Virus record (IMG/VR): IMGVR_UViG_3300028025_003409
Span: 1 to 64,000 of that record
Reading direction: 5' to 3' (one strand)
DNA from: a virus
DNA: 64,000 bases
Shown here in pieces: positions 55,288-64,000 of the stretch (positions are counted from its first letter, which is position 1; every line of letters starts with the position of its first letter). Both the position numbers and the translations under genes were made by a program. The notes beneath the pieces were generated by a model that was not told the origin of the DNA, made no database searches, and saw nothing but the letters and a program-made list of their open reading frames with translations.

Positions 55288-55379
55288 TAGAATTCACTTT
55301 CCTTATCTAGCATGGTGGGGACTAGTACAATTATAGTGCATAGCACTGACAAAACTAGGATGATAATAGGTAGGCTCAT
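55287..55379 (-). CDS. 30-aa membrane peptide
   Basis: MSLPIIILVLSVLCTIIVLVPTMLDKESEF, TAATG-coupled. Confidence 0.55.
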   Translation of the reverse strand: MSLPIIILVLSVLCTIIVLVPTMLDKESEF

Positions 55380-55703: not shown

Positions 55704-55801
55704 TCTTACTATGTAAGTCTAGCAAAAAATCTAATAAATATCAACTTACTAGCCAGTATTCTCATATAATGAGACGCTTGGGCTATGTGATTTAGGTCAC
55801 T
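55704..55801 (-). promoter_or_regulatory. leftward promoter module (CRP-like site, TACTGGCTAGTAA, TTGATA...TAGACT)
   Basis: Inverted homologue of 59038-59134. Confidence 0.7.
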
Positions 55802-55886
55802 TATTTGCTAGGCTCATATAACTTTTTGTTATCTTATTTGCTAGGCTCATAACCTTTTATCTCTATTTAATTTTTCTTATACTAGT

Positions 55887-55915
55887 ATAATAACACATCT
55901 ACCCCTAAAAGTCAA
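55887..55915 (-). promoter_or_regulatory. leftward sigmaA promoter
   Basis: TTGACT-17nt-TATTAT. Confidence 0.7.
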
Positions 55916-56007
55916 GTCCTAGCACGGCGTGTCGTGTGTGATATGCGTCACATGGGGACGTGCATGATCTACCCCCTATACAGGTACCCCCTATCTAGGA
56001 CGTGCCC

Positions 56008-56027: not shown

Positions 56028-56096
56028 CTATAGTGGTATACATCACATGTGTGCTACATCACAATGTCCAATTTATACCTTTTATACCCTCGTAAA

Positions 56097-56118
56097 TGTC
56101 AGACCCCCCTGTTATACT
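56097..56118 (+). promoter_or_regulatory. PafBC/RecA-NDp-type promoter
   Basis: TGTCAG-N10-TATACT. Confidence 0.7.
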
Positions 56119-56170
56119 TACTAGTATAAAGAAAGTCAGAAAAGGTTTCTGAACTAGAAAGGACAATAAA

Positions 56171-56344
56171 ATGTCAAACAGTATTTTCGGTCAAGGTTTC
56201 GCTAAGGTTAGCGATTACCCTAAAGGTCTAATGAACCTCTGCCCTTGTGGGCAGGTAGTCTTAGCACCTGCTAAGTATCACGCAGGTCAGCCTTGGTGGG
56301 ATAACCCCAACAAGTGTAAAGAATTATTCGAAGGAGTAAAATAA
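56171..56344 (+). CDS. 57-aa protein
   Basis: GAAAGGA SD; MSNSIFGQGF...CPCG...ELFEGVK. Confidence 0.65.
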   Translation: MSNSIFGQGFAKVSDYPKGLMNLCPCGQVVLAPAKYHAGQPWWDNPNKCKELFEGVK

Positions 56345-56473
56345 ATGAACTTAGATGAATACAAGCAAATGATAGAGGCTCAACGCCTCACCTCTTTAGC
56401 AATAGCGTTAGACGCTCTACGCAAATCCAATGCCATAATGGAAAACACTTTCAATTTAGAGGAGAATGAATAA
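56345..56473 (+). CDS. 42-aa protein
   Basis: AAGGAG SD; MNLDEYKQMIEAQR... Confidence 0.6.
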   Translation: MNLDEYKQMIEAQRLTSLAIALDALRKSNAIMENTFNLEENE

Positions 56474-56740
56474 ATGAAAACACTTCAAGAAAAATTAGAC
56501 CTTGCTGCAAAAGCAGTTGAGCCAGTTTTAGCAGAATTGCTAAATGAGGTTGATGAAAAAACCGACTATGAATTAGAACAAGAATTGCAAGAGCAATTTG
56601 ATGAATACATAAATGATTCGCATGACCCAGTAATGATTGCAGGAATTTTATTTTATCCTGCTGACATTCTAAAAGAATGCGACCCAATCGCTTATCGTGT
56701 TTTTCTAAATGATTTTGAATCGTATTTAGAAAACGAATAA
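56474..56740 (+). CDS. acidic hypothetical protein
   Basis: GAGGAG SD; FDEYIND...ILKECDPIAYR. Confidence 0.7.
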   Translation: MKTLQEKLDLAAKAVEPVLAELLNEVDEKTDYELEQELQEQFDEYINDSHDPVMIAGILFYPADILKECDPIAYRVFLNDFESYLENE

Positions 56741-56829
56741 ATAAAAACCAAGATCGCAGAAATAAAACTCTGCGATTTTTTGGGACGTCCCGTGTGATGC
56801 GAATCACATTCAAAATACGGCGTGTCGTC

Positions 56830-56858
56830 TTGACTTTTTGAGATTTCTCTGCTATACT
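56830..56858 (+). promoter_or_regulatory. sigmaA promoter with GTGTC 3 bp upstream of -35
   Basis: TTGACT-17nt-TATACT. Confidence 0.8.
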
Positions 56859-56907
56859 TCTAGTATAAAGAAAATTGAGAAAGGTTCTCAAATTGAAAGG
56901 AGTCCAA

Positions 56908-57012
56908 ATGGACTATAACGAATACTATGATGAAATTTATCTAGAAATCTATGAGGAGTTTGGCGCTGAAAGCGTATCAGACCCAGCCTACGCTGAATCT
57001 CTAAAAAAGTGA
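56908..57012 (+). CDS. 34-aa acidic Tyr-rich peptide
   Basis: GAAAGGAG SD; MDYNEYYDEIYLEIYEEFGAESVSDPAYAESLKK. Confidence 0.65.
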   Translation: MDYNEYYDEIYLEIYEEFGAESVSDPAYAESLKK

Positions 57013-57044
57013 TGTAAATCACACAACGCCTACGGCGTGTCGCC

Positions 57045-57073
57045 TTGACTTTTCAGGGTATGTGTGATAGTCT
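57045..57073 (+). promoter_or_regulatory. sigmaA promoter with GTGTC 3 bp upstream of -35
   Basis: TTGACT-17nt-TAGTCT. Confidence 0.7.
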
Positions 57074-57175
57074 TACTACATAAGAAAAACTAAATAAAGG
57101 ACAAATTGGCTAATGAGCCTAAGCAAATAAATGTGATACAAATCACAGTGAGCCTTAGCGAATAAGTAGCCGAAA

Positions 57176-57197
57176 TGTCAGCCCCCAATGGTAAGAT
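57176..57197 (+). promoter_or_regulatory. PafBC/RecA-NDp-type promoter
   Basis: TGTCAG-N10-TAAGAT. Confidence 0.65.
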
Positions 57198-57230
57198 AGT
57201 CTTATCAAACAAACGAAAGGAAGTCTAAAA

Positions 57231-57428
57231 ATGACTTACACTATAACACTAGAAACCTTTTCAGGTTCTACAAAAAAAATCAACCTTGCCTCTAAGGGTG
57301 CGGTTGCTCAATTCATCTCAACTTATCCAACTCAACTACCTGTTGGCGTTGCTGTAAAAATCGCTTGCGATACCCTCGGAATTAGTGGCACACTTCGTGG
57401 CACTTCTACACTTACAAAATCAAACTAA
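57231..57428 (+). CDS. hypothetical protein
   Basis: GAAAGGA SD. Confidence 0.65.
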   Translation: MTYTITLETFSGSTKKINLASKGAVAQFISTYPTQLPVGVAVKIACDTLGISGTLRGTSTLTKSN

Positions 57429-57447
57429 AGAATAGGAAATAAAATAA

Positions 57448-57654
57448 ATGACTAAAGTAGAACACTCTCTAAAGTTCGTAACCGAGTTCGATGAAACTCA
57501 CCCAGTAGCACTACAAGCACTATCTATCCCTCACTCAGATTTGGTTGCTATGCTTGAAGGAATGCTAAAAGATTTGCTAGTGCCTGCCCTCGGTCCTGTA
57601 CTTGATGAAATAAATGCTCGTGGCACTTATGCAATTCTAAAGGTGGCCGAGTAA
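57448..57654 (+). CDS. hypothetical protein
   Basis: ORF in early module. Confidence 0.65.
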   Translation: MTKVEHSLKFVTEFDETHPVALQALSIPHSDLVAMLEGMLKDLLVPALGPVLDEINARGTYAILKVAE

Positions 57655-57833
57655 TGATGACACGCAAGGACTATGTTGCAACTGCTGAAATTCTTTCATC
57701 ATTCAAAGATTTGATAGGTGATGAATTTACTTTTCACGACTTAGTTGATGAATTTGGTTCAATGTTTGAAGCAGATAATCCAAGATTTGATTCAACTAAA
57801 TTTTTTGAAGCGTGTAACAAAGACACTTACTAA
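57654..57833 (+). CDS. 59-aa phage protein with MTRKDY...DNPRFD..KF..AC motif
   Basis: Manual translation; TAATG-coupled; motif recognised as common among small phage proteins. Confidence 0.7.
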   Translation: MMTRKDYVATAEILSSFKDLIGDEFTFHDLVDEFGSMFEADNPRFDSTKFFEACNKDTY

Positions 57834-58006
57834 ATAAAAAAATCCTGAGCAAGATTTAAAACTGCTCCACACTCAAAATTTTGGGACGTCGCGTTCGGGC
57901 GTGTCGTCCACATGACGCAGATCACATTCAGAATTGAGCGTGAGTTATCCACATGACCTACATCACATTTCAAAATGTCCGATTTGTGGCATTACTGGTC
58001 AGTAGA

Positions 58007-58028
58007 TGTCAGACCCCCCTGCTATACT
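58007..58028 (+). promoter_or_regulatory. PafBC/RecA-NDp-type promoter
   Basis: TGTCAG-N10-TATACT, near-identical to 56097. Confidence 0.7.
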
Positions 58029-58079
58029 TACTAGTATAAAGAAAGTCAATCAAGGTGATTGAACTAGAAAGGAATTCAA

Positions 58080-58256
58080 ATGAATTCAACAATTATCAAG
58101 TGTGTAGAACACACACCCTTCAAGTCTGCTATCTCAGAGGTTGCAGATACACAATTTACTTTTTGTGAAATTTGTGAAAATAACATTGAGCGTTGGTATA
58201 ACGATACCGACCCTGAGCGTCTACCAATGTGGACAGATTGGAAGGTATCTAAATGA
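58080..58256 (+). CDS. 58-aa protein
   Basis: GAAAGGA SD; MNSTIIKCVEH...CEICE...WKVSK. Confidence 0.65.
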   Translation: MNSTIIKCVEHTPFKSAISEVADTQFTFCEICENNIERWYNDTDPERLPMWTDWKVSK

Positions 58257-58363
58257 TAGACTTCGTAAAACAATTAGAATTAGAAAACTATCTTGCAGAC
58301 GAGCAAGTAGACCCACTAGCAAAAATGCTAGATGAACTAATAAAGAAAGGAGAATACAAATGA
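58253..58363 (+). CDS. 36-aa protein
   Basis: ATGA-coupled; MIDFVKQLELENYLADEQVDPLAKMLDELIKKGEYK. Confidence 0.55.
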   Translation: MIDFVKQLELENYLADEQVDPLAKMLDELIKKGEYK

Positions 58364-58596
58364 GTCTATCCCTTGCTAATAAAATCGCAAAAGATAAATT
58401 CTTTCTGCCCCCTTCAAAATACATAAACCACAAAGTCGTGGAGATTGTATCTTTAAATGAGGATAGCGGTATCGCTACTGTAATCCTAGAAAAATACACA
58501 ATAGGCAGAAATGCTAATGTGTATAAAAATAATAATGTGTTCACAATTGAATTGCCTTATTCCGAATTTCAAAATCTAAATGGTTGGAGTGAATAA
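58360..58596 (+). CDS. hypothetical protein
   Basis: AAGGAG SD. Confidence 0.65.
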   Translation: MSLSLANKIAKDKFFLPPSKYINHKVVEIVSLNEDSGIATVILEKYTIGRNANVYKNNNVFTIELPYSEFQNLNGWSE

Positions 58597-58761
58597 ATGA
58601 GTACCTATGTACCAATTAAATCTGTATGTGGTGCAGTAACTACCACAATTGACATCTATGACATTGAGTTAAATCCTCACGGAGTAATCTGTTGCGATAA
58701 CTGCAAGTCAATCATTCTATGCCGTAAGGCTTGGGATTTTCTATACAAGGAGAATAAGTAA
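58597..58761 (+). CDS. 54-aa Cys-rich protein
   Basis: MSTYVPIKSVCG...CCDNCK...CRKAW. Confidence 0.6.
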   Translation: MSTYVPIKSVCGAVTTTIDIYDIELNPHGVICCDNCKSIILCRKAWDFLYKENK

Positions 58762-58901
58762 TGCCACTATTTGAATTTACAACATTTATAAATGTTGAAG
58801 CAGAAGACTATGACTCTGCTATTGCTATGTTTGACTCTAATTTAGAGTATGGTGGAATTCGCAGAAGCGATGTTTATGTCGCAGAAATTGAGGAAAAGTA
58901 A
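58761..58901 (+). CDS. 46-aa acidic protein
   Basis: AAGGAG SD; MPLFEFTTFINVEAEDYDSA... Confidence 0.6.
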   Translation: MPLFEFTTFINVEAEDYDSAIAMFDSNLEYGGIRRSDVYVAEIEEK

Positions 58902-58902
58902 A

Positions 58903-59001
58903 ATGAGTTTTTATCAAACCTTTTTTGAAAGTGGCAACGCATTGTTTTGGTTTTCAATGATCTGCTTAGCAAGTGGATTTTATTTATTTGTAAAAGAGTA
59001 G
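58903..59001 (+). CDS. 32-aa membrane peptide
   Basis: GAGGA SD; MSFYQTFFESGNALFWFSMICLASGFYLFVKE. Confidence 0.55.
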   Translation: MSFYQTFFESGNALFWFSMICLASGFYLFVKE

Positions 59002-59037
59002 AAAAACGGGACGTCGCGTTCGGGCGTGTCGCCACGC

Positions 59038-59134
59038 TGTGAGATTTATCACATGGCTTGAGCGTCTCAGTATTTGGACTTACTGGCTAGTAACTTGATA
59101 ATTTGTGAGTAATAGGCTAGACTTACATAGTAAG
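59038..59134 (+). promoter_or_regulatory. promoter module (CRP site, TTACT-N4-AGTAA palindrome, TTGATA-17nt-TAGACT)
   Basis: Seen directly; homologous to 55704-55801. Confidence 0.7.
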
Positions 59135-59185
59135 TAAAAATAAATAAAAGAAAGTCTATCCCACTACGGCGTGTCTAACCGAAAA

Positions 59186-59207
59186 TGTCAGACCCCTATG
59201 GTAGGAT
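59186..59207 (+). promoter_or_regulatory. PafBC/RecA-NDp-type promoter
   Basis: TGTCAG-N10-TAGGAT. Confidence 0.65.
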
Positions 59208-59239
59208 AGAATTATCAACAAAAAGAAAGAGGTTGGCAA

Positions 59240-59446
59240 ATGTCAGCAAATGTCTATACAATAGAACACCTACTTGTAGGAACACAATACCGCTCACGAA
59301 CACTATCGGGAGAAATTATCTCAGCAGAGAAACACCCTAACGCAGTTTGGTATCAGGGTTGCGAAAGTTATCTAGTGGAAGTGCGCCCTAGTAATTTTGG
59401 AAAAGTCGTATGTCGCACAGTAGCAGTAAAGGTAGAAAATAACTAA
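59240..59446 (+). CDS. hypothetical protein
   Basis: AGAGGT SD. Confidence 0.65.
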   Translation: MSANVYTIEHLLVGTQYRSRTLSGEIISAEKHPNAVWYQGCESYLVEVRPSNFGKVVCRTVAVKVENN

Positions 59447-59568
59447 TGGGATACATAGAGATTTTTAGAATTGACAATGAGGGTGCAGGTTGGATAGACT
59501 TGGACAATGCAACACCTAGCGAATTGCTAGACCTAGAAATTGGCTTATTTCAGGAAGGGGCTATCTAA
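59446..59568 (+). CDS. 40-aa acidic protein
   Basis: TAATG-coupled; MGYIEIFRIDNEGAGWIDLD... Confidence 0.55.
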   Translation: MGYIEIFRIDNEGAGWIDLDNATPSELLDLEIGLFQEGAI

Positions 59569-59720
59569 TGGGAGTAATGAAAGAATTGCACTTAGAGATA
59601 ACTACTTGCGACCTATGCTATGGCACAGGTTGGCTATACTTTGGCAATAGCGAGGACTTTGATACAGAGTCTTGCGATTGTAACCCACACCAACTATTTA
59701 TAACTAAGGAGAATAACTAA
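59568..59720 (+). CDS. 50-aa Zn-finger-like protein
   Basis: CDLCYGTGW...CDC; TAATG-coupled. Confidence 0.6.
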   Translation: MGVMKELHLEITTCDLCYGTGWLYFGNSEDFDTESCDCNPHQLFITKENN

Positions 59721-59938
59721 TGAACGAATACCTATACTCAGTAACAACAACTAATGACGGAGAGGCTAAGCCGAATTGGATTGGTCGCTACTCAGACGCA
59801 CTAAGTGCCGTTGAAGTTTATCAGAGATTTATTGACCACGGATTTGCTAACGAATTCCGTACAGTAAATTTATCAGAGCCTAGTGGCAAAATGCATACAA
59901 AAATTTTGTATCGCAGTGGAATTGTGGGAGGTAAGTAA
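59720..59938 (+). CDS. hypothetical protein
   Basis: AAGGAG SD. Confidence 0.65.
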   Translation: MNEYLYSVTTTNDGEAKPNWIGRYSDALSAVEVYQRFIDHGFANEFRTVNLSEPSGKMHTKILYRSGIVGGK

Positions 59939-60100
59939 ATGGACATAACTACTTTTGCAAAAGGAATGAGCAAGATTGCTCCGAATTATGGCATAGGGTA
60001 TGATAACTATGGTCAGGTTATTATTTATACTAACCTAAAAGAAACTGAAAATAATCAGTATGCAGAAATGTCAGATAACGATTTTGAGGAGAATAAATAA
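59939..60100 (+). CDS. 53-aa protein
   Basis: GGAGGT SD; DNYGQVIIYTNL. Confidence 0.6.
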   Translation: MDITTFAKGMSKIAPNYGIGYDNYGQVIIYTNLKETENNQYAEMSDNDFEENK

Positions 60101-60387
60101 TGGGATCAGTTACAGCAATTGGATTAGCGGATAGCGTATTGGATTTAGAAACTCAATTGGCGTATCACTTACAGGGTAATCACTATCCACCCGTACCACT
60201 TTCTATGGTTCAGCCTTGCATAGAAGCAATTGACGCATACTATGATGAGGACTATGACCGATTTATTGCTATGCCTGAAGGCGTATTCTATAAGGGAATG
60301 AGCCACGCACCTGCCCACGCAATTGTAGACCAACACCACTTGTCTTGGTTTATTGACCCAGTAGACGAATTTGAAGATGAGGAATAA
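60100..60387 (+). CDS. hypothetical protein
   Basis: GAGGAG SD; HLQGNHYPPVP...IVDQHHL. Confidence 0.7.
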   Translation: MGSVTAIGLADSVLDLETQLAYHLQGNHYPPVPLSMVQPCIEAIDAYYDEDYDRFIAMPEGVFYKGMSHAPAHAIVDQHHLSWFIDPVDEFEDEE

Positions 60388-60388
60388 A

Positions 60389-60631
60389 ATGAATGCTACA
60401 ATGAGCGACATGGAACTAATCGAGGCAGATACACTTGCACCAGACCAACTAATGATTGGTGATTTAATAAAAGTAAACAATGACATTCTTGAAGTTATTT
60501 TTATTGAAAGTGATTCTACTGGAGATAACTACGATGTACAAGTAAAAAATGAATTTGATGAATTAGAAATAATTCAATTTGCTTATACTGATTCTATTCC
60601 ATTGTATGTTTTTATTGACTACGATGAATAA
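60389..60631 (+). CDS. acidic hypothetical protein
   Basis: Start MNATM after GAGGA; QLMIGDLI SH3-like motif. Confidence 0.6.
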   Translation: MNATMSDMELIEADTLAPDQLMIGDLIKVNNDILEVIFIESDSTGDNYDVQVKNEFDELEIIQFAYTDSIPLYVFIDYDE

Positions 60632-60820
60632 GTAAAACTATTTTTATGCACTTCCCCGCATAAAAATGGGACGTCCCGCAGTCGGGCGTGTCTGTGTATA
60701 TCCTGTGGATAACTATGTGCTACTCATGAGTAACCCTTTAAATATTTCTTTAAGATAGTTTATTTTATTTTCCCCGATTCTGGGCAAAATTTTTTGTGAT
60801 TTTTATCACACGATCAGGAT

Positions 60821-60850
60821 TTGACATTTTTATGATATGTGTGTTAGTAT
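60821..60850 (+). promoter_or_regulatory. sigmaA promoter (leaderless)
   Basis: TTGACA-18nt-TAGTAT, ATG 6 nt downstream; perfect CRP site at 60795-60810. Confidence 0.75.
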
Positions 60851-60856
60851 TGTTAT

Positions 60857-61003
60857 ATGAAAAAAACAAATGAGGAACTCCGCAGGCTTATGGAACTACG
60901 CCGTAGCAACGCTGCCTCTGCCGTGCCTTCTAAAAGGGCTTACAATCGAAAGAAATGTCAGTCCGAACTGTTACAATATAAATATCAACAAAAAGGAGAA
61001 TAG
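60857..61003 (+). CDS. 48-aa basic peptide
   Basis: MKKTNEELRRLMELRRSNAASAVPSKRAYNRKKCQSELLQYKYQQKGE. Confidence 0.6.
   Translation: MKKTNEELRRLMELRRSNAASAVPSKRAYNRKKCQSELLQYKYQQKGE
60956..60977 (+). promoter_or_regulatory. PafBC/RecA-NDp-type promoter (inside ORF)
   Basis: TGTCAG-N10-TACAAT, upstream of an AAGGAG SD. Confidence 0.65.
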
Positions 61004-61006
61004 CCC

Positions 61007-61183
61007 ATGACCTACGAAAACGATGAAATGCTAGATGAATACTATGCAACTGTATGCCCCTCATGCAAAGAAAATGCGGTAGACGCATATGAAGATAAAT
61101 GCACTCATTGCTTACTAGAAGAAATGTCTGTCCACTATAACGAAGACATTGCTCTAGAAATGAGTCTTGGCCTTGACTACTGA
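61007..61183 (+). CDS. 58-aa acidic CxxC...CxxC protein
   Basis: AAGGAG SD; CPSC...CTHC. Confidence 0.65.
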   Translation: MTYENDEMLDEYYATVCPSCKENAVDAYEDKCTHCLLEEMSVHYNEDIALEMSLGLDY

Positions 61184-61907
61184 TACACTTAAACTTAAAC
61201 GCTCTAATGATAGAAAGGTGGCTAATCTTGTCACAAAAAATGGAAAGCAAGCCGCAATCGCAAATACCTTTGGACTACCTGCTGGAAAGGCTTTCTCGTG
61301 CCCTGGTGCCACTAGCGTATGTGAAAGCGTGTGCTATGCAGGAAAACTCGAAAAACTCTTCAAAGGCGTAAAGGCTAACCTCTTACACAATTGGACCTTA
61401 CTTAAGGACGCCGATCAATTAACTATGGAGACACTGTTAACTGAAATGATTAACGATTTCCGTGCAGACTGTGTAAAGAAAGACGCCCCTATGCTATTCC
61501 GTATCCATTGGGACGGAGATTTCTTTAATGATATATACACTCATGCATGGAAGAATGTAATCAATAACAATCCTGATATTCAATTCTGGGTATATACCCG
61601 TGTTAAGTCTGCTGCACTTATACTTAAGGATGTATCTAATCTATCATTGTACTTCTCTGCAGATAGTGAGAATGTAAAAACCGCCGTTGACTTAAAAATT
61701 AATAGTGGCGTACGTATGGCATACCTTGCTAAGAACTTTGCTATTGGTCAAGCCGATGTAAAAGAAATGATAGGCAGACCTGCTGCTAAGTGTCCTGAGA
61801 ATAATAAACAAATTCCACTTATCTCAACTAACGGTAGCGCTTGCGTTTCATGCTCACTTTGTGTATACTCTAAGAGTGATATCATATTCTCTGCGAGTAA
61901 AAAATAA
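61167..61907 (+). CDS. GP88-family protein (radical-SAM-related, Cys-rich)
   Basis: FGLPAG..SCPGATSVCESVCYA, FRIHWDGDFF, FWVYTR, CP...CVSCSLC. Confidence 0.75.
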   Translation: MALTTDTLKLKRSNDRKVANLVTKNGKQAAIANTFGLPAGKAFSCPGATSVCESVCYAGKLEKLFKGVKANLLHNWTLLKDADQLTMETLLTEMINDFRADCVKKDAPMLFRIHWDGDFFNDIYTHAWKNVINNNPDIQFWVYTRVKSAALILKDVSNLSLYFSADSENVKTAVDLKINSGVRMAYLAKNFAIGQADVKEMIGRPAAKCPENNKQIPLISTNGSACVSCSLCVYSKSDIIFSASKK

Positions 61908-61979
61908 ATGAGCACTGCATTCTATTTTTGGATAATGCTAATACTACTAATAAGTTTATTAGGTGGTGGTGGTTGGTGA
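61908..61979 (+). CDS. 23-aa membrane peptide
   Basis: MSTAFYFWIMLILLISLLGGGGW. Confidence 0.4.
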   Translation: MSTAFYFWIMLILLISLLGGGGW

Positions 61980-62153
61980 TGATCCCCTGAAAAATGGGGA
62001 CGTCGCAAAATCTTTGATTTGTCAAATTACGACACGCATAAAAAATGTGGGGTTTATCACACTAGAAAATGTCATTTGGATTAGGATTTATGACATTTTT
62101 ATGCTAAAATTATACTATAAGCAAAACCCCCACAACAGAAAGGCAAGACCCAA

Positions 62154-62324
62154 ATGACACTAGGCGGATACACTTACCAAATTGGTGATTTATTCACAAC
62201 CAGCAAAACAGGCATTACGGGACGCATTAGCGATTTCACCCCTGTCAATGCTAAACTAACTAGAGTTTCATTACGCTTGGCAAACGGCGCACACCGATTT
62301 GCTATGGTAAAGACCTCTAAGTAA
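62154..62324 (+). CDS. 56-aa SH3/KOW-like basic protein
   Basis: GAAAGG SD; TYQIGDLFTTSKTGITGRI. Confidence 0.7.
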   Translation: MTLGGYTYQIGDLFTTSKTGITGRISDFTPVNAKLTRVSLRLANGAHRFAMVKTSK

Positions 62325-62355
62325 TCTCAAAATGTGAGAAAATGTCGAAATGGAT

Positions 62356-62385
62356 TTGACATTTCTACAAGCAAAATGTTATACT
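62356..62385 (+). promoter_or_regulatory. sigmaA promoter
   Basis: TTGACA-18nt-TATACT. Confidence 0.75.
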
Positions 62386-62431
62386 TAGGTATAACCAAAT
62401 AACAACCCCTAACAGAAAAGAGAAAAAACAA

Positions 62432-62596
62432 ATGGCAGTAAATACAGCAACATACAAGGTCGGCGATACTTTCACGACACAGAAGTCAAAGGTTAGCGGA
62501 GTAATCACAGAGATTACACCACAGGCTAACGGAAATGTCCGAGTAAAGTTAGATGTAGATGGCAAGCCACGCTACACAACTTGGACGGCTAAGTAA
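62432..62596 (+). CDS. 54-aa SH3/KOW-like protein, paralogue of 62154
   Basis: TYKVGDTFTTQKSKVSGVI. Confidence 0.7.
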   Translation: MAVNTATYKVGDTFTTQKSKVSGVITEITPQANGNVRVKLDVDGKPRYTTWTAK

Positions 62597-62709
62597 TCTA
62601 ATTACTAAGTGTCGGGCGTACAGGCACTATAAATAAGGGGCGAGAACGAACCTGAGCAAGTTCCAAAAAGGCTCAACACCCCCACTAACAGAAAAGGAAA
62701 CAAAAACAA

Positions 62710-63132
62710 ATGGCAAGAGGCAAAGCAATCTCAGTAAAAATCCCTACTCAACGAGTAATCACCGCACTAGAGTCTGCACTAGCAAAACTAGAGTCAGACT
62801 ACGCATCACAAGAACAAAAGGAAGCACAGTACCAACTTCTATACAAGGCTTGGCAGAAAGAGTTAGCAGATTTCGCTATTGCTAATTTCTCAAAGGCTGA
62901 GAACATTAGAACAAACTTCCGTTCTTGGAACAAGACCCTCAACATTGACTTCGACATTATTGGTAGCGAAAGCAATTTCCCTGCTGAACCTGAGAAGCAA
63001 CACGAAACTATCCATCAGCACACTTATCGTGAGCAAAAAGAGGAAATGCAAAATGCAATTCGTATCCTCAAAATGACAGATGAGGAAGTTGTAAATACTT
63101 CCACATACAATGCGGTTGCTCGCTATCTCTAA
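62710..63132 (+). CDS. hypothetical protein
   Basis: AAAGGA SD; 140 aa, coiled-coil. Confidence 0.75.
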   Translation: MARGKAISVKIPTQRVITALESALAKLESDYASQEQKEAQYQLLYKAWQKELADFAIANFSKAENIRTNFRSWNKTLNIDFDIIGSESNFPAEPEKQHETIHQHTYREQKEEMQNAIRILKMTDEEVVNTSTYNAVARYL

Positions 63133-63134
63133 GT

Positions 63135-63321
63135 GAGATTGGGTGGGGTGTAAAAGCCCCACTCATTATCCCCTGAGTTCCACGCTATTTATAGCAAGTG
63201 TCCCCTGGGGATCCTTCGCCAGGCTGATTAGGGCGATAACAGAAATACTATAGAGCCAGTTCACACCAACTGCAAGAAGTGTAACTACCTGAGTAAGTAT
63301 CAAAACTGCTCCCCGCAAGGG
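63135..63321 (+). ncRNA. candidate structured RNA (multi-hairpin intergenic tract)
   Basis: Stems GGGTGGGG/CCCCACTC, ATCCCC/GGGGAT, TCGCC/GGCGA, AGTT.ACAC/GTGTAACT, plus the CCTGAG..CTGCTC element. Confidence 0.45.
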
Positions 63322-63324
63322 TCC

Positions 63325-63354
63325 TTGACAAATGTCAGTGGTCTCGTGTACAAT
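63325..63354 (+). promoter_or_regulatory. dual promoter: TTGACA-18nt-TACAAT with embedded TGTCAGTG-N8-TACAAT
   Basis: Exact RecA-NDp geometry. Confidence 0.75.
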
Positions 63355-63386
63355 TAAATTAAACAAACTAACAGAAAGAGGCCCCC

Positions 63387-63806
63387 ATGGACCAAACAAC
63401 AAACACAGTAGTGAATGCCACAGAAGACTTTCTTCGTGACTCACTAGCCAAAGCAACATTGCGTGTTACAGAATTAGAGGAGCACATCTCTAAGGTTACG
63501 CAGCGCTCATATGCAGAGTCTGCAGATAAGAATCGTATCGTTGAAGCAATGCAAGAGTGGACCCTTGGGGCCCTTGAGCACGGCACCATTGATGAATCAG
63601 ATGCAGAAGAAATTGCAGACATCTGTGGATTTGAACTAACGAAAGAATTCGAAGTTGAAGTCACAGTCATGTATTCGGTTACCGTAAATGCTCGCACTGA
63701 AGAGGATGCACAGAATGCAATTCATGATATTGATTTTGATACTGTAGACTACAATTCAGATTCAATTTCATATCTATCATCCTCAATTGATAGAGTTGAC
63801 ATTTAG
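63387..63806 (+). CDS. acidic hypothetical protein
   Basis: AGAGG SD; acidic C-half. Confidence 0.75.
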   Translation: MDQTTNTVVNATEDFLRDSLAKATLRVTELEEHISKVTQRSYAESADKNRIVEAMQEWTLGALEHGTIDESDAEEIADICGFELTKEFEVEVTVMYSVTVNARTEEDAQNAIHDIDFDTVDYNSDSISYLSSSIDRVDI

Positions 63807-64000
63807 TAGGGGGCTACTAACAAAAGACCTGAGCATGTCTGTACGTAAACTGCTCATTTTTAAAATCCCTCAAAATTTGGGACGTCCCGCCGACCAGTCA
63901 TTGTCAAATCGACACGCCGTTTACGAAGGGTGATCTTTGCCACAATGTTCGATTTATCCACATCTAACTATCCCGATTTGCATATGTCAGTCAGTCCTGC

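Follow-up and report, generated by a model that had tools for sequence, protein, structure and literature searches.

The right-hand end of the DNA analysed here raises the question of how a long block of small viral genes is switched on, and by whose regulator. The window, by which the whole stretch of 64,000 nt is meant, corresponds to positions 1 to 64,000 of an IMG/VR virus record (IMGVR_UViG_3300028025_003409) that is 109,057 bp long and has a terminal repeat of only 102 bp. In this genome the structural and tail genes (1-55.5 kb) and the replication and accessory genes (73.7-109 kb) are encoded on the minus strand, and a block of small open reading frames (ORFs) occupies the plus strand from 56 to ~73.5 kb. 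This rightward block, running from 56171 to the window edge at 64000 and on to ~73.5 kb, comprises ~35 ORFs of 40-250 amino acids (aa), almost all of unknown function, in promoter-genes-terminator modules, and its gene size and layout suggest that it is expressed early. A preliminary description of the window had noticed, upstream of several of these ORFs, the hexamer TGTCAG followed at exactly 10 nt by TANNNT, and had likened the arrangement to the promoters of the mycobacterial DNA-damage activator PafBC. The analysis reported here supports this likeness and points to the PafBC of the host as the probable activator.

TGTCAG-type sites in the phage genome and its relatives

The pattern TGTCAG-N10-TANNNT was found 9 times in the window against 0.94 expected (standard deviation 0.94; maximum 4 in 100 shuffles), and the bare hexamer was not enriched (30 vs 39.6 expected). 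The whole genome held 11 matches on the plus strand and 3 on the minus strand, with none for the reversed-pattern control; on the plus strand the N10 spacing accounted for 11 sites and each of the other spacings from 5 to 19 nt for 0-4. The six sites listed in the preliminary description (56097, 57176, 58007, 59186, 60956, and 63333) all matched the pattern on the plus strand, and each was followed by a Shine-Dalgarno (SD) sequence and an ORF at a distance of 30-53 nt. For the site at 63985, cut off by the window edge, a -10 hexamer had been predicted just beyond it, and the genome record indeed reads TATACT at 64001-64006. Additional plus-strand sites were located outside the window at 65766 and 66712, and a minus-strand site, 94606(-), also carries TTGACA. 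Judged from the sequence, TGTCAG-N10-TANNNT is a genuine promoter class, marked by its strand and spacing preference, a mostly extended -10, the lack of a -35, and a ribosome site with an ORF 30-55 nt further on.

This class was strongly conserved in a comparison set of 80 related phage loci (1.34 Mb in total), which contained 675 matches on the gene strand and 74 on the opposite strand. Other spacings occurred at most 30 times each except N15, with 104 occurrences, an excess that would fit some -10 regions having another TAnnnT 5 nt further on (a reading taken from the sites of the present phage, not from a count). At the N10 spacing, the other nGTCnn hexamers were each found no more than 32 times. 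A logo built from 505 unique sites in the relatives read A-W-W-TGTCAG-(t)-C-C-C-n-n-a-T-G-n-TA-n-A-M-T, followed by an A-rich leader and an SD 18-25 nt past the -10. Information at the -35 position amounted to ~0-0.2 bits, the exceptions being the sites at 63325 and 94606(-), which have TTGACA, and a -35-like hexamer in ~18% of the unique sites in the relatives.

The same hexamer emerged from a motif-blind test in which all gene-strand TGnTAnnnT sequences served as anchors: the commonest hexamer 7 nt upstream was TGTCAG (418 occurrences, with a runner-up of 30), and TTGACA/TTGACT appeared 14-15 nt upstream, corresponding to a 17-18 bp spacer. Because the test recovered both elements, the phage family is predicted to have two promoter classes, an ordinary sigma-A-type and a TGTCAG-type, of which the latter is the more numerous. 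For 75 of the 80 relatives, the 500 nt that precede the anchor gene contained a motif match, mostly at the position of the 60956 promoter, and in these orthologous sites the TGTCAG, the TG, and the TA...T were fixed while the spacer and the free -10 positions varied. On the minus strand, a leftward site of the same type, TTGTCAGTG...TATAAT (55330-55351), lies at the divergent control region; this match is considered real because orthologous TGTCAGTGC..TATA[AC]T sites occur in at least 20 related contigs at the same distance, 4-6.5 kb, from the anchor gene.

Likeness to PafBC-dependent promoters and the candidate hosts

The published PafBC motif is tGTCgg-N10-tAnnnT, with the upstream element at -23 to -28 and no -35; R46 and R50 of PafB read the GTC, and PafC touches region 4 of sigma A, a mode of activation termed 'sigma adaptation' (PMC8635444). 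The Streptomyces form is TTGTCAGTGGC-N6-TAGggT (cited in PMC2375139), and PafBC joins RNA polymerase (RNAP) only on such promoter DNA and only with single-stranded DNA (ssDNA) bound to its WYL domains (PMC11804915). The geometry claimed for the phage sites was borne out against this published description. All of them carry the invariant GTC within TGTCAG, exactly 10 nt from a sigma A-type TAnnnT, which places the hexamer at -28 to -23; a -35 consensus was lacking across the 505 unique sites, and a transcription start 6-8 nt past the -10 would be compatible with the A-rich leader and with the position of the SD at 18-25 nt. Read in this way, the phage sites are in agreement with PafBC-dependent promoters in every feature by which these are recognized from sequence.

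The likeness to the PafBC-dependent promoters of cellular genes (RecA-NDp, recA P1-type) extends to the A/T before the hexamer, and the hexamer itself is TGTCAG as in Streptomyces and in the acI lake actinobacteria discussed below. The phage promoters differ in belonging to a lytic phage and in preceding small, functionally uncharacterized genes and not repair genes; furthermore, they lack the LexA box that accompanies the acI recA and dnaE2 promoters.

The phage, which is abundant and uncultured, has a GC content of 38% and originates from lake metagenomes. Its products include a WhiB (E 8e-13), a DnaE-type polymerase, RecA, a GP88-like protein with more than 580 relatives in IMG/VR, DUF932, a carbamoyltransferase, and 2-oxoglutarate (2OG) oxygenases. 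The DnaE was 52-55% identical over its full length to those of the Streptomyces phages BillNye and Jay2Jay (Stanwilliamsviridae; clusters BE/BK), and the capsid protease resembled its Stanwilliamsviridae counterpart even at the DNA level. Genome size (~110-130 kb) and whiB-type actinophage content are also shared with that family; a megablast search of the early region against cultured phages gave zero matches. Because of the whiB gene and the DnaE identity, the phage is assigned to the actinophages, as a low-GC lake relative of Stanwilliamsviridae and not a mycobacteriophage, and no sign of lysogeny was seen in the parts examined. The mycobacterial framing of the preliminary description was therefore abandoned in view of the 38% GC, the lake origin, and nearest isolates that infect Streptomyces; M. 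smegmatis would serve as a surrogate, not as the host.

The most plausible host clade is Nanopelagicaceae (acI), the dominant low-GC lake actinobacteria. WYL genes were detected in 398 of 401 sampled genomes of the class Actinomycetes (a tally that includes unpublished genomes, on which no specific claim rests), and every 1.3-1.5 Mb genome among the 401 gave two or three WYL hits. In an Acidimicrobiia-like class, that of the metagenome-assembled genome (MAG) G001 ('uncultured Acidimicrobiaceae'), HTH_PafC was found in 47 of 61 genomes, and 12 of the 14 without a match were ~1 Mb in size. This prevalence implies that any likely lake host would possess PafBC. Raw motif counts in 25 streamlined genomes, which are probably acI, were uninformative at low GC (3-14 each vs 1-11 in the control), and the host comparison was based instead on orthologous sites and their downstream genes. 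Orthologous TGTCAG-N10-TAnnnT sites were indeed shared by these 25 genomes.

One of the host-clade genomes, G467, is complete (1,440,005 bp) and was named as 'Candidatus Nanopelagicaceae bacterium' by exact protein look-up; it shares an identical CarD with 'Ca. Planktophila sulfonica'. It encodes pafB (WYL+WCX), pafC (HTH_PafC+WYL+WCX), and tatC in the same order as in mycobacteria. Its PafB could be aligned over the full length to PafB from the RNAP-PafBC structure of M. smegmatis (E 4e-39) and retains R46/R50, which read the GTC, as well as the ssDNA-binding residues R181, Y196, R204, R208, R211, and R214. TGTCAG-N10-TAnnnT stands directly before recA-recX, DUF6504-dnaE2, and carD in this genome, from which it follows that acI use the exact hexamer and spacing of the phage. 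The acI sites are of two flavours, TGTCAGTG and TGTCAG(N)CC, and at recA and dnaE2 a LexA box follows the -10.

In the same genome, eight TGTCAG-type promoters, several of them leaderless, were clustered at G467:C1:436-468 kb before genes for TPR proteins, a trypsin-like peptidase, a C5 DNA methylase, and small unknowns, and this part of the acI genome may be a variable or defence island under PafBC control.

A 300-genome sample of the phylum consisted mostly of deep-branching classes, and its small low-GC genomes were mostly without WYL and without the motif at recA. The deep-branching actinobacterial MAG G022 (locus G022:C1:150753; ~38% GC), tried as a relative of the host, was rejected, as its RecA groups with 'Ca. 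Aquicultor'-like MAGs; it carries tandem WYL genes and, 30 nt ahead of recA, TTGTCGC-N10-TATTAT. WYL was lacking in four other small low-GC genomes, and the two of them checked at recA also had no motif there.

Proposed activation by host PafBC and the rival explanations

On the mechanism proposed here, the promoters carried by the phage would belong to the PafBC-dependent class ('RecA-NDp'; -26 element plus -10). The extended -10 (TGnTAnnnT) would be read by the housekeeping RNAP-sigma A of the host and, there being no -35, productive initiation would need host PafBC: the winged helix-turn-helix of PafB would recognize GTC within the TGTCAG element (-28 to -23), and PafC would bridge to sigma region 4. 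As PafBC would be active only with ssDNA held by its WYL domains, the block would fire once infection makes ssDNA, possibly from resected injected ends, nuclease action, or the first replication; the ordinary TTGACW-type promoters of the same region would need no activator. We consider it on balance probable that host PafBC activates the phage promoters through sigma adaptation in this manner once infection yields ssDNA.

Several observations weigh against this account. When the phage WhiB was used as a query for the host, its matches were confined to phage contigs that had been mis-binned into MAGs from unrelated taxa, and the comparison of phage positions 75-95 kb (20 kb) with the 25 streamlined genomes gave a single short low-complexity nucleotide match. 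That match (genome 76935-76998), resembling a proline/threonine repeat, was 82-94% identical over 30-55 nt and does not count as evidence of the host. Jay2Jay and BillNye showed no enrichment of TGTCRG-N10-TANNNT (0-2 vs 2-5 in the control), though Streptomyces has PafBC; the motif is thereby ruled out as a family trait of Stanwilliamsviridae, and its absence from the cultured Streptomyces relatives implies a lineage-specific acquisition by the low-GC lake lineage. The flanks of the phage promoters, which form the majority class in their region, are also richer than those of the host sites, the hexamer being preferentially preceded by AAA and followed by a C-run (63%) and the TGn being strong, whereas acI sites prefer TG after the hexamer and have a weak TGn; these differences would allow for a phage factor or for firing without an activator. 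The genes downstream are not repair genes. Lastly, an extended -10 is able to work without an activator.

A factor encoded by the phage itself was sought in several ways. Six-frame searches of the phage genome for WYL, HTH_PafC, and sigma region 2 were all without a match, and no WYL was found in 12 related records, 4 of them complete. The alternative of a WYL-type activator of the phage's own, raised in the preliminary description, was accordingly not supported; phage-encoded PafBC and a phage sigma factor were both rejected on these searches. LexA control was likewise rejected, given that the LexA box (TCGAAC-N4-GTTCGA), strict or relaxed, occurs nowhere in the 109-kb genome. Of the 38 Pfam families matched, the top 25 included neither the MotA nor the AsiA family, no search by name having been made.

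There could nonetheless be a phage-encoded specificity factor of a non-WYL kind, for instance an unknown small early protein expressed from TTGACW promoters and perhaps targeting sigma region 4 together with the phage WhiB, that reads TGTCAG and recruits host RNAP; the sites would then be 'middle' promoters like those of T4 that merely resemble PafBC sites. The presence of WhiB, the dozens of early ORFs without a family match, the AAA and C-run flanks atypical of host sites, and the two interleaved promoter classes, reminiscent of early and middle transcription in T4, would all suit such a factor. It would, however, have to have converged on the hexamer, the 10-nt spacing, and the -10 type of the host PafBC regulon, and neither HTH_PafC, WYL, nor sigma region 2 was detected in the phage. 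In addition, the divergent control region already has promoters of the TGTCAG type as its first in either direction, and these would have to await a product of the sigma-A-type promoters. We thus regard this explanation as unlikely.

Similarly improbable, in our judgment, is that RNAP-sigma A alone fires these promoters through the strong extended -10, the TGTCAG elements serving mainly to soak up PafBC, and neighbouring palindromes and boxes to soak up CRP- and DnaA-type proteins, so that the damage and defence response of the host is blunted. The TGn is far stronger than in host sites, and the region is dense in other boxes: among the relatives, the CRP-type palindrome TGTGA-N6-TCACA was counted 447 times in the 80 loci vs 0 in a reversed-sequence control, the DnaA-box-like TTATCCACA 452 times vs 9 in the control, and GGCGTGTC 337 times vs 1. 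The TPR, peptidase, and methylase island behind acI TGTCAG promoters might, moreover, be defence-related. A pure decoy, on the other hand, needs neither the gene strand nor the exact activating distance from the -10 at which the elements always stand; the CRP-type sites are phased at 10 bp relative to the promoters in the manner of activator sites, and the PafBC complex forms only with RNAP on promoter DNA plus ssDNA (PMC11804915). That TGTCAG is instead the operator of a repressor, or a -35-like box of an alternative sigma factor, with no relation to PafBC appears highly improbable: palindromes TATACT..AGTATA do cover the start region at 56113 and 58023, but TGTCAG itself is not palindromic, the -10 is of the sigma A type with TGn, a 10-nt spacing misfits a sigma -35/-10 pair, and a sigma gene was not found in the phage.

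Activation by host PafBC could also be put in a bolder form, which we advance tentatively and think rather doubtful as a whole. PafBC would here be obligatory for most early promoters of a globally abundant lake actinophage family, the alarm of the host becoming the 'go' signal of the phage, and the many PafBC-, CRP-, and DnaA-type sites in replicating phage DNA would also draw regulators off host genes, including the PafBC-wired acI island.

Architecture of the region and its biological meaning

Within the rightward block, promoter 1 (AAATGTCAG-ACCCCCC-TGt-TATACT, 56097-56118, plus strand, as are all the promoters described next) heads ORFs 56171-56344, 56345-56473, and 56474-56740, and its module is closed by a hairpin with a T-run at 56753-56776. 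Promoter 2 (AAATGTCAG..TGgTAAGAT, 57176-57197) heads ORFs 57231-57428, 57448-57654, and 57654-57833; promoter 3 (58007-58028), near-identical to promoter 1, heads the ORFs from 58080 to ~59001; and promoter 4 (59186-59207) heads seven small ORFs at 59240-60631. Promoter 5 (60956-60977) precedes ORF 61007-61183 and the GP88-like gene (61167-61907). Promoter 6 is predicted to be dual (63325-63354), a TTGACA with an 18-bp spacer overlapping AAATGTCAGTGG..TACAAT, whose match is at 63333, and heads ORF 63387-63806. Promoter 7 (63985-64000, its -10 lying beyond the window) heads a DUF932/phrog_1221 gene of 340 aa at 64043-65065. All ten products scanned behind TGTCAG-type promoters were of unknown function.

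Two further matches are probably fortuitous. The plus-strand one at 59241-59262, noted in the preliminary description as lying in an ORF start, is present, although it overlaps the start codon of ORF 59240-59446; it lacks the TGn and the C-run, and its 'AAATGTCAG' includes the ATG of the ORF. The other, at 56666-56645 on the minus strand, is antisense within an ORF.

Promoter 5 is embedded in the 3' end of a basic 48-aa ORF (60857-61003), in which TGT CAG form Cys-Gln codons. In several relatives this stretch, translated by eye, reads ..KKCQS.., and its bases may double as codons and promoter.

The second promoter class is exemplified by the canonical sigma-A-type promoter TTGACT-17-TATACT at 56830-56858 (plus strand), and others of this class are located at 57045-57073, 60821-60850, 62090-62118, and 62356-62385. 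Two paralogous ~55-aa proteins (62154-62324 and 62432-62596; 37% identity, E 4e-10) each stand behind their own sigma-A-type promoter, at 62090 (ATGACA) and 62356 (TTGACA). In both classes, a near-palindrome TATACT..AGTATA covers the -10/start region (56113-56128, 56853-56868, 58023-58038, and 55880-55891); it is followed by a shared leader (AAAGAAAGTCA...) and may be an operator or a 5' hairpin. Repeated GAGCCTAGCAAATAA-like words without an ORF were observed downstream of sigma-A-type promoters at 55800-55850(-) and 57110-57165(+).

Perfect CRP/GlxR-type palindromes TGTGA-N6-TCACA are situated at 55937, 56793, 57132, 59038, and 60795 in the window and at 65229 and 66479 in the genome. Their centres fall in a 10-bp phase, at ~-64, -74, and -84 of TGTCAG-type promoters and at -54, -64, and -74 of TTGACW-type promoters, a phasing that looks like class I activator geometry. 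The DnaA-box-like TTATCCACA is intergenic in the early region (56008(-), 57945, 60704(-), and 63954) and recurs at genome positions 69602-69689; the three boxes together at 69.6-69.7 kb may mark an origin. The GGCGTGTC boxes of the window (55926, 56819, 57034, 57898, 59023, 59168, and 60685) have a modal position of ~-42 for each of the two promoter classes (15 of 80 sites in one and 15 of 34 in the other), and GGGACGTC, found after terminators, was much more weakly conserved (55 vs 29).

Among known systems, a close analogy is offered by the middle promoters of T4, in which a MotA box at -30 combined with a sigma-70 -10 is used in AsiA/MotA 'sigma appropriation'. They share with the phage promoters an activator box that replaces the -35 and lies nearer the -10, the interleaving with ordinary early promoters, and a use, predicted for the present phage, in timing the phage programme. 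In T4, by contrast, sigma region 4 is remodelled by the two proteins, which the phage itself encodes, whereas here a phage activator was not found and the box is the site of a host activator. The LexA-box promoters of CTX phi, GIL01, and coliphage 186 tum provide a precedent for the coupling to host DNA-damage sensing predicted here; they differ in relying on repressor release in temperate phages, whereas the present case would involve an activator pathway in a genome that has no LexA box. The papers searched yielded nothing that links PafBC or RecA-NDp promoters to phage genomes, although one study reportedly observed an effect of PafBC on mycobacteriophage resistance. Both PafBC and sigma adaptation have, to our knowledge, been described solely in the context of DNA-damage responses of cells.

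If host PafBC does activate these promoters, a lytic phage would have turned the alarm activator of its host into a timing device of its own, unlike the repressor release of the LexA systems. One of the commonest groups of lake phages would then have PafBC as a host dependency factor, and the concept of the PafBC regulon would extend to acI, the dominant freshwater bacteria, with a bearing on sensing and regulation during infection in streamlined bacteria that lack CRISPR.

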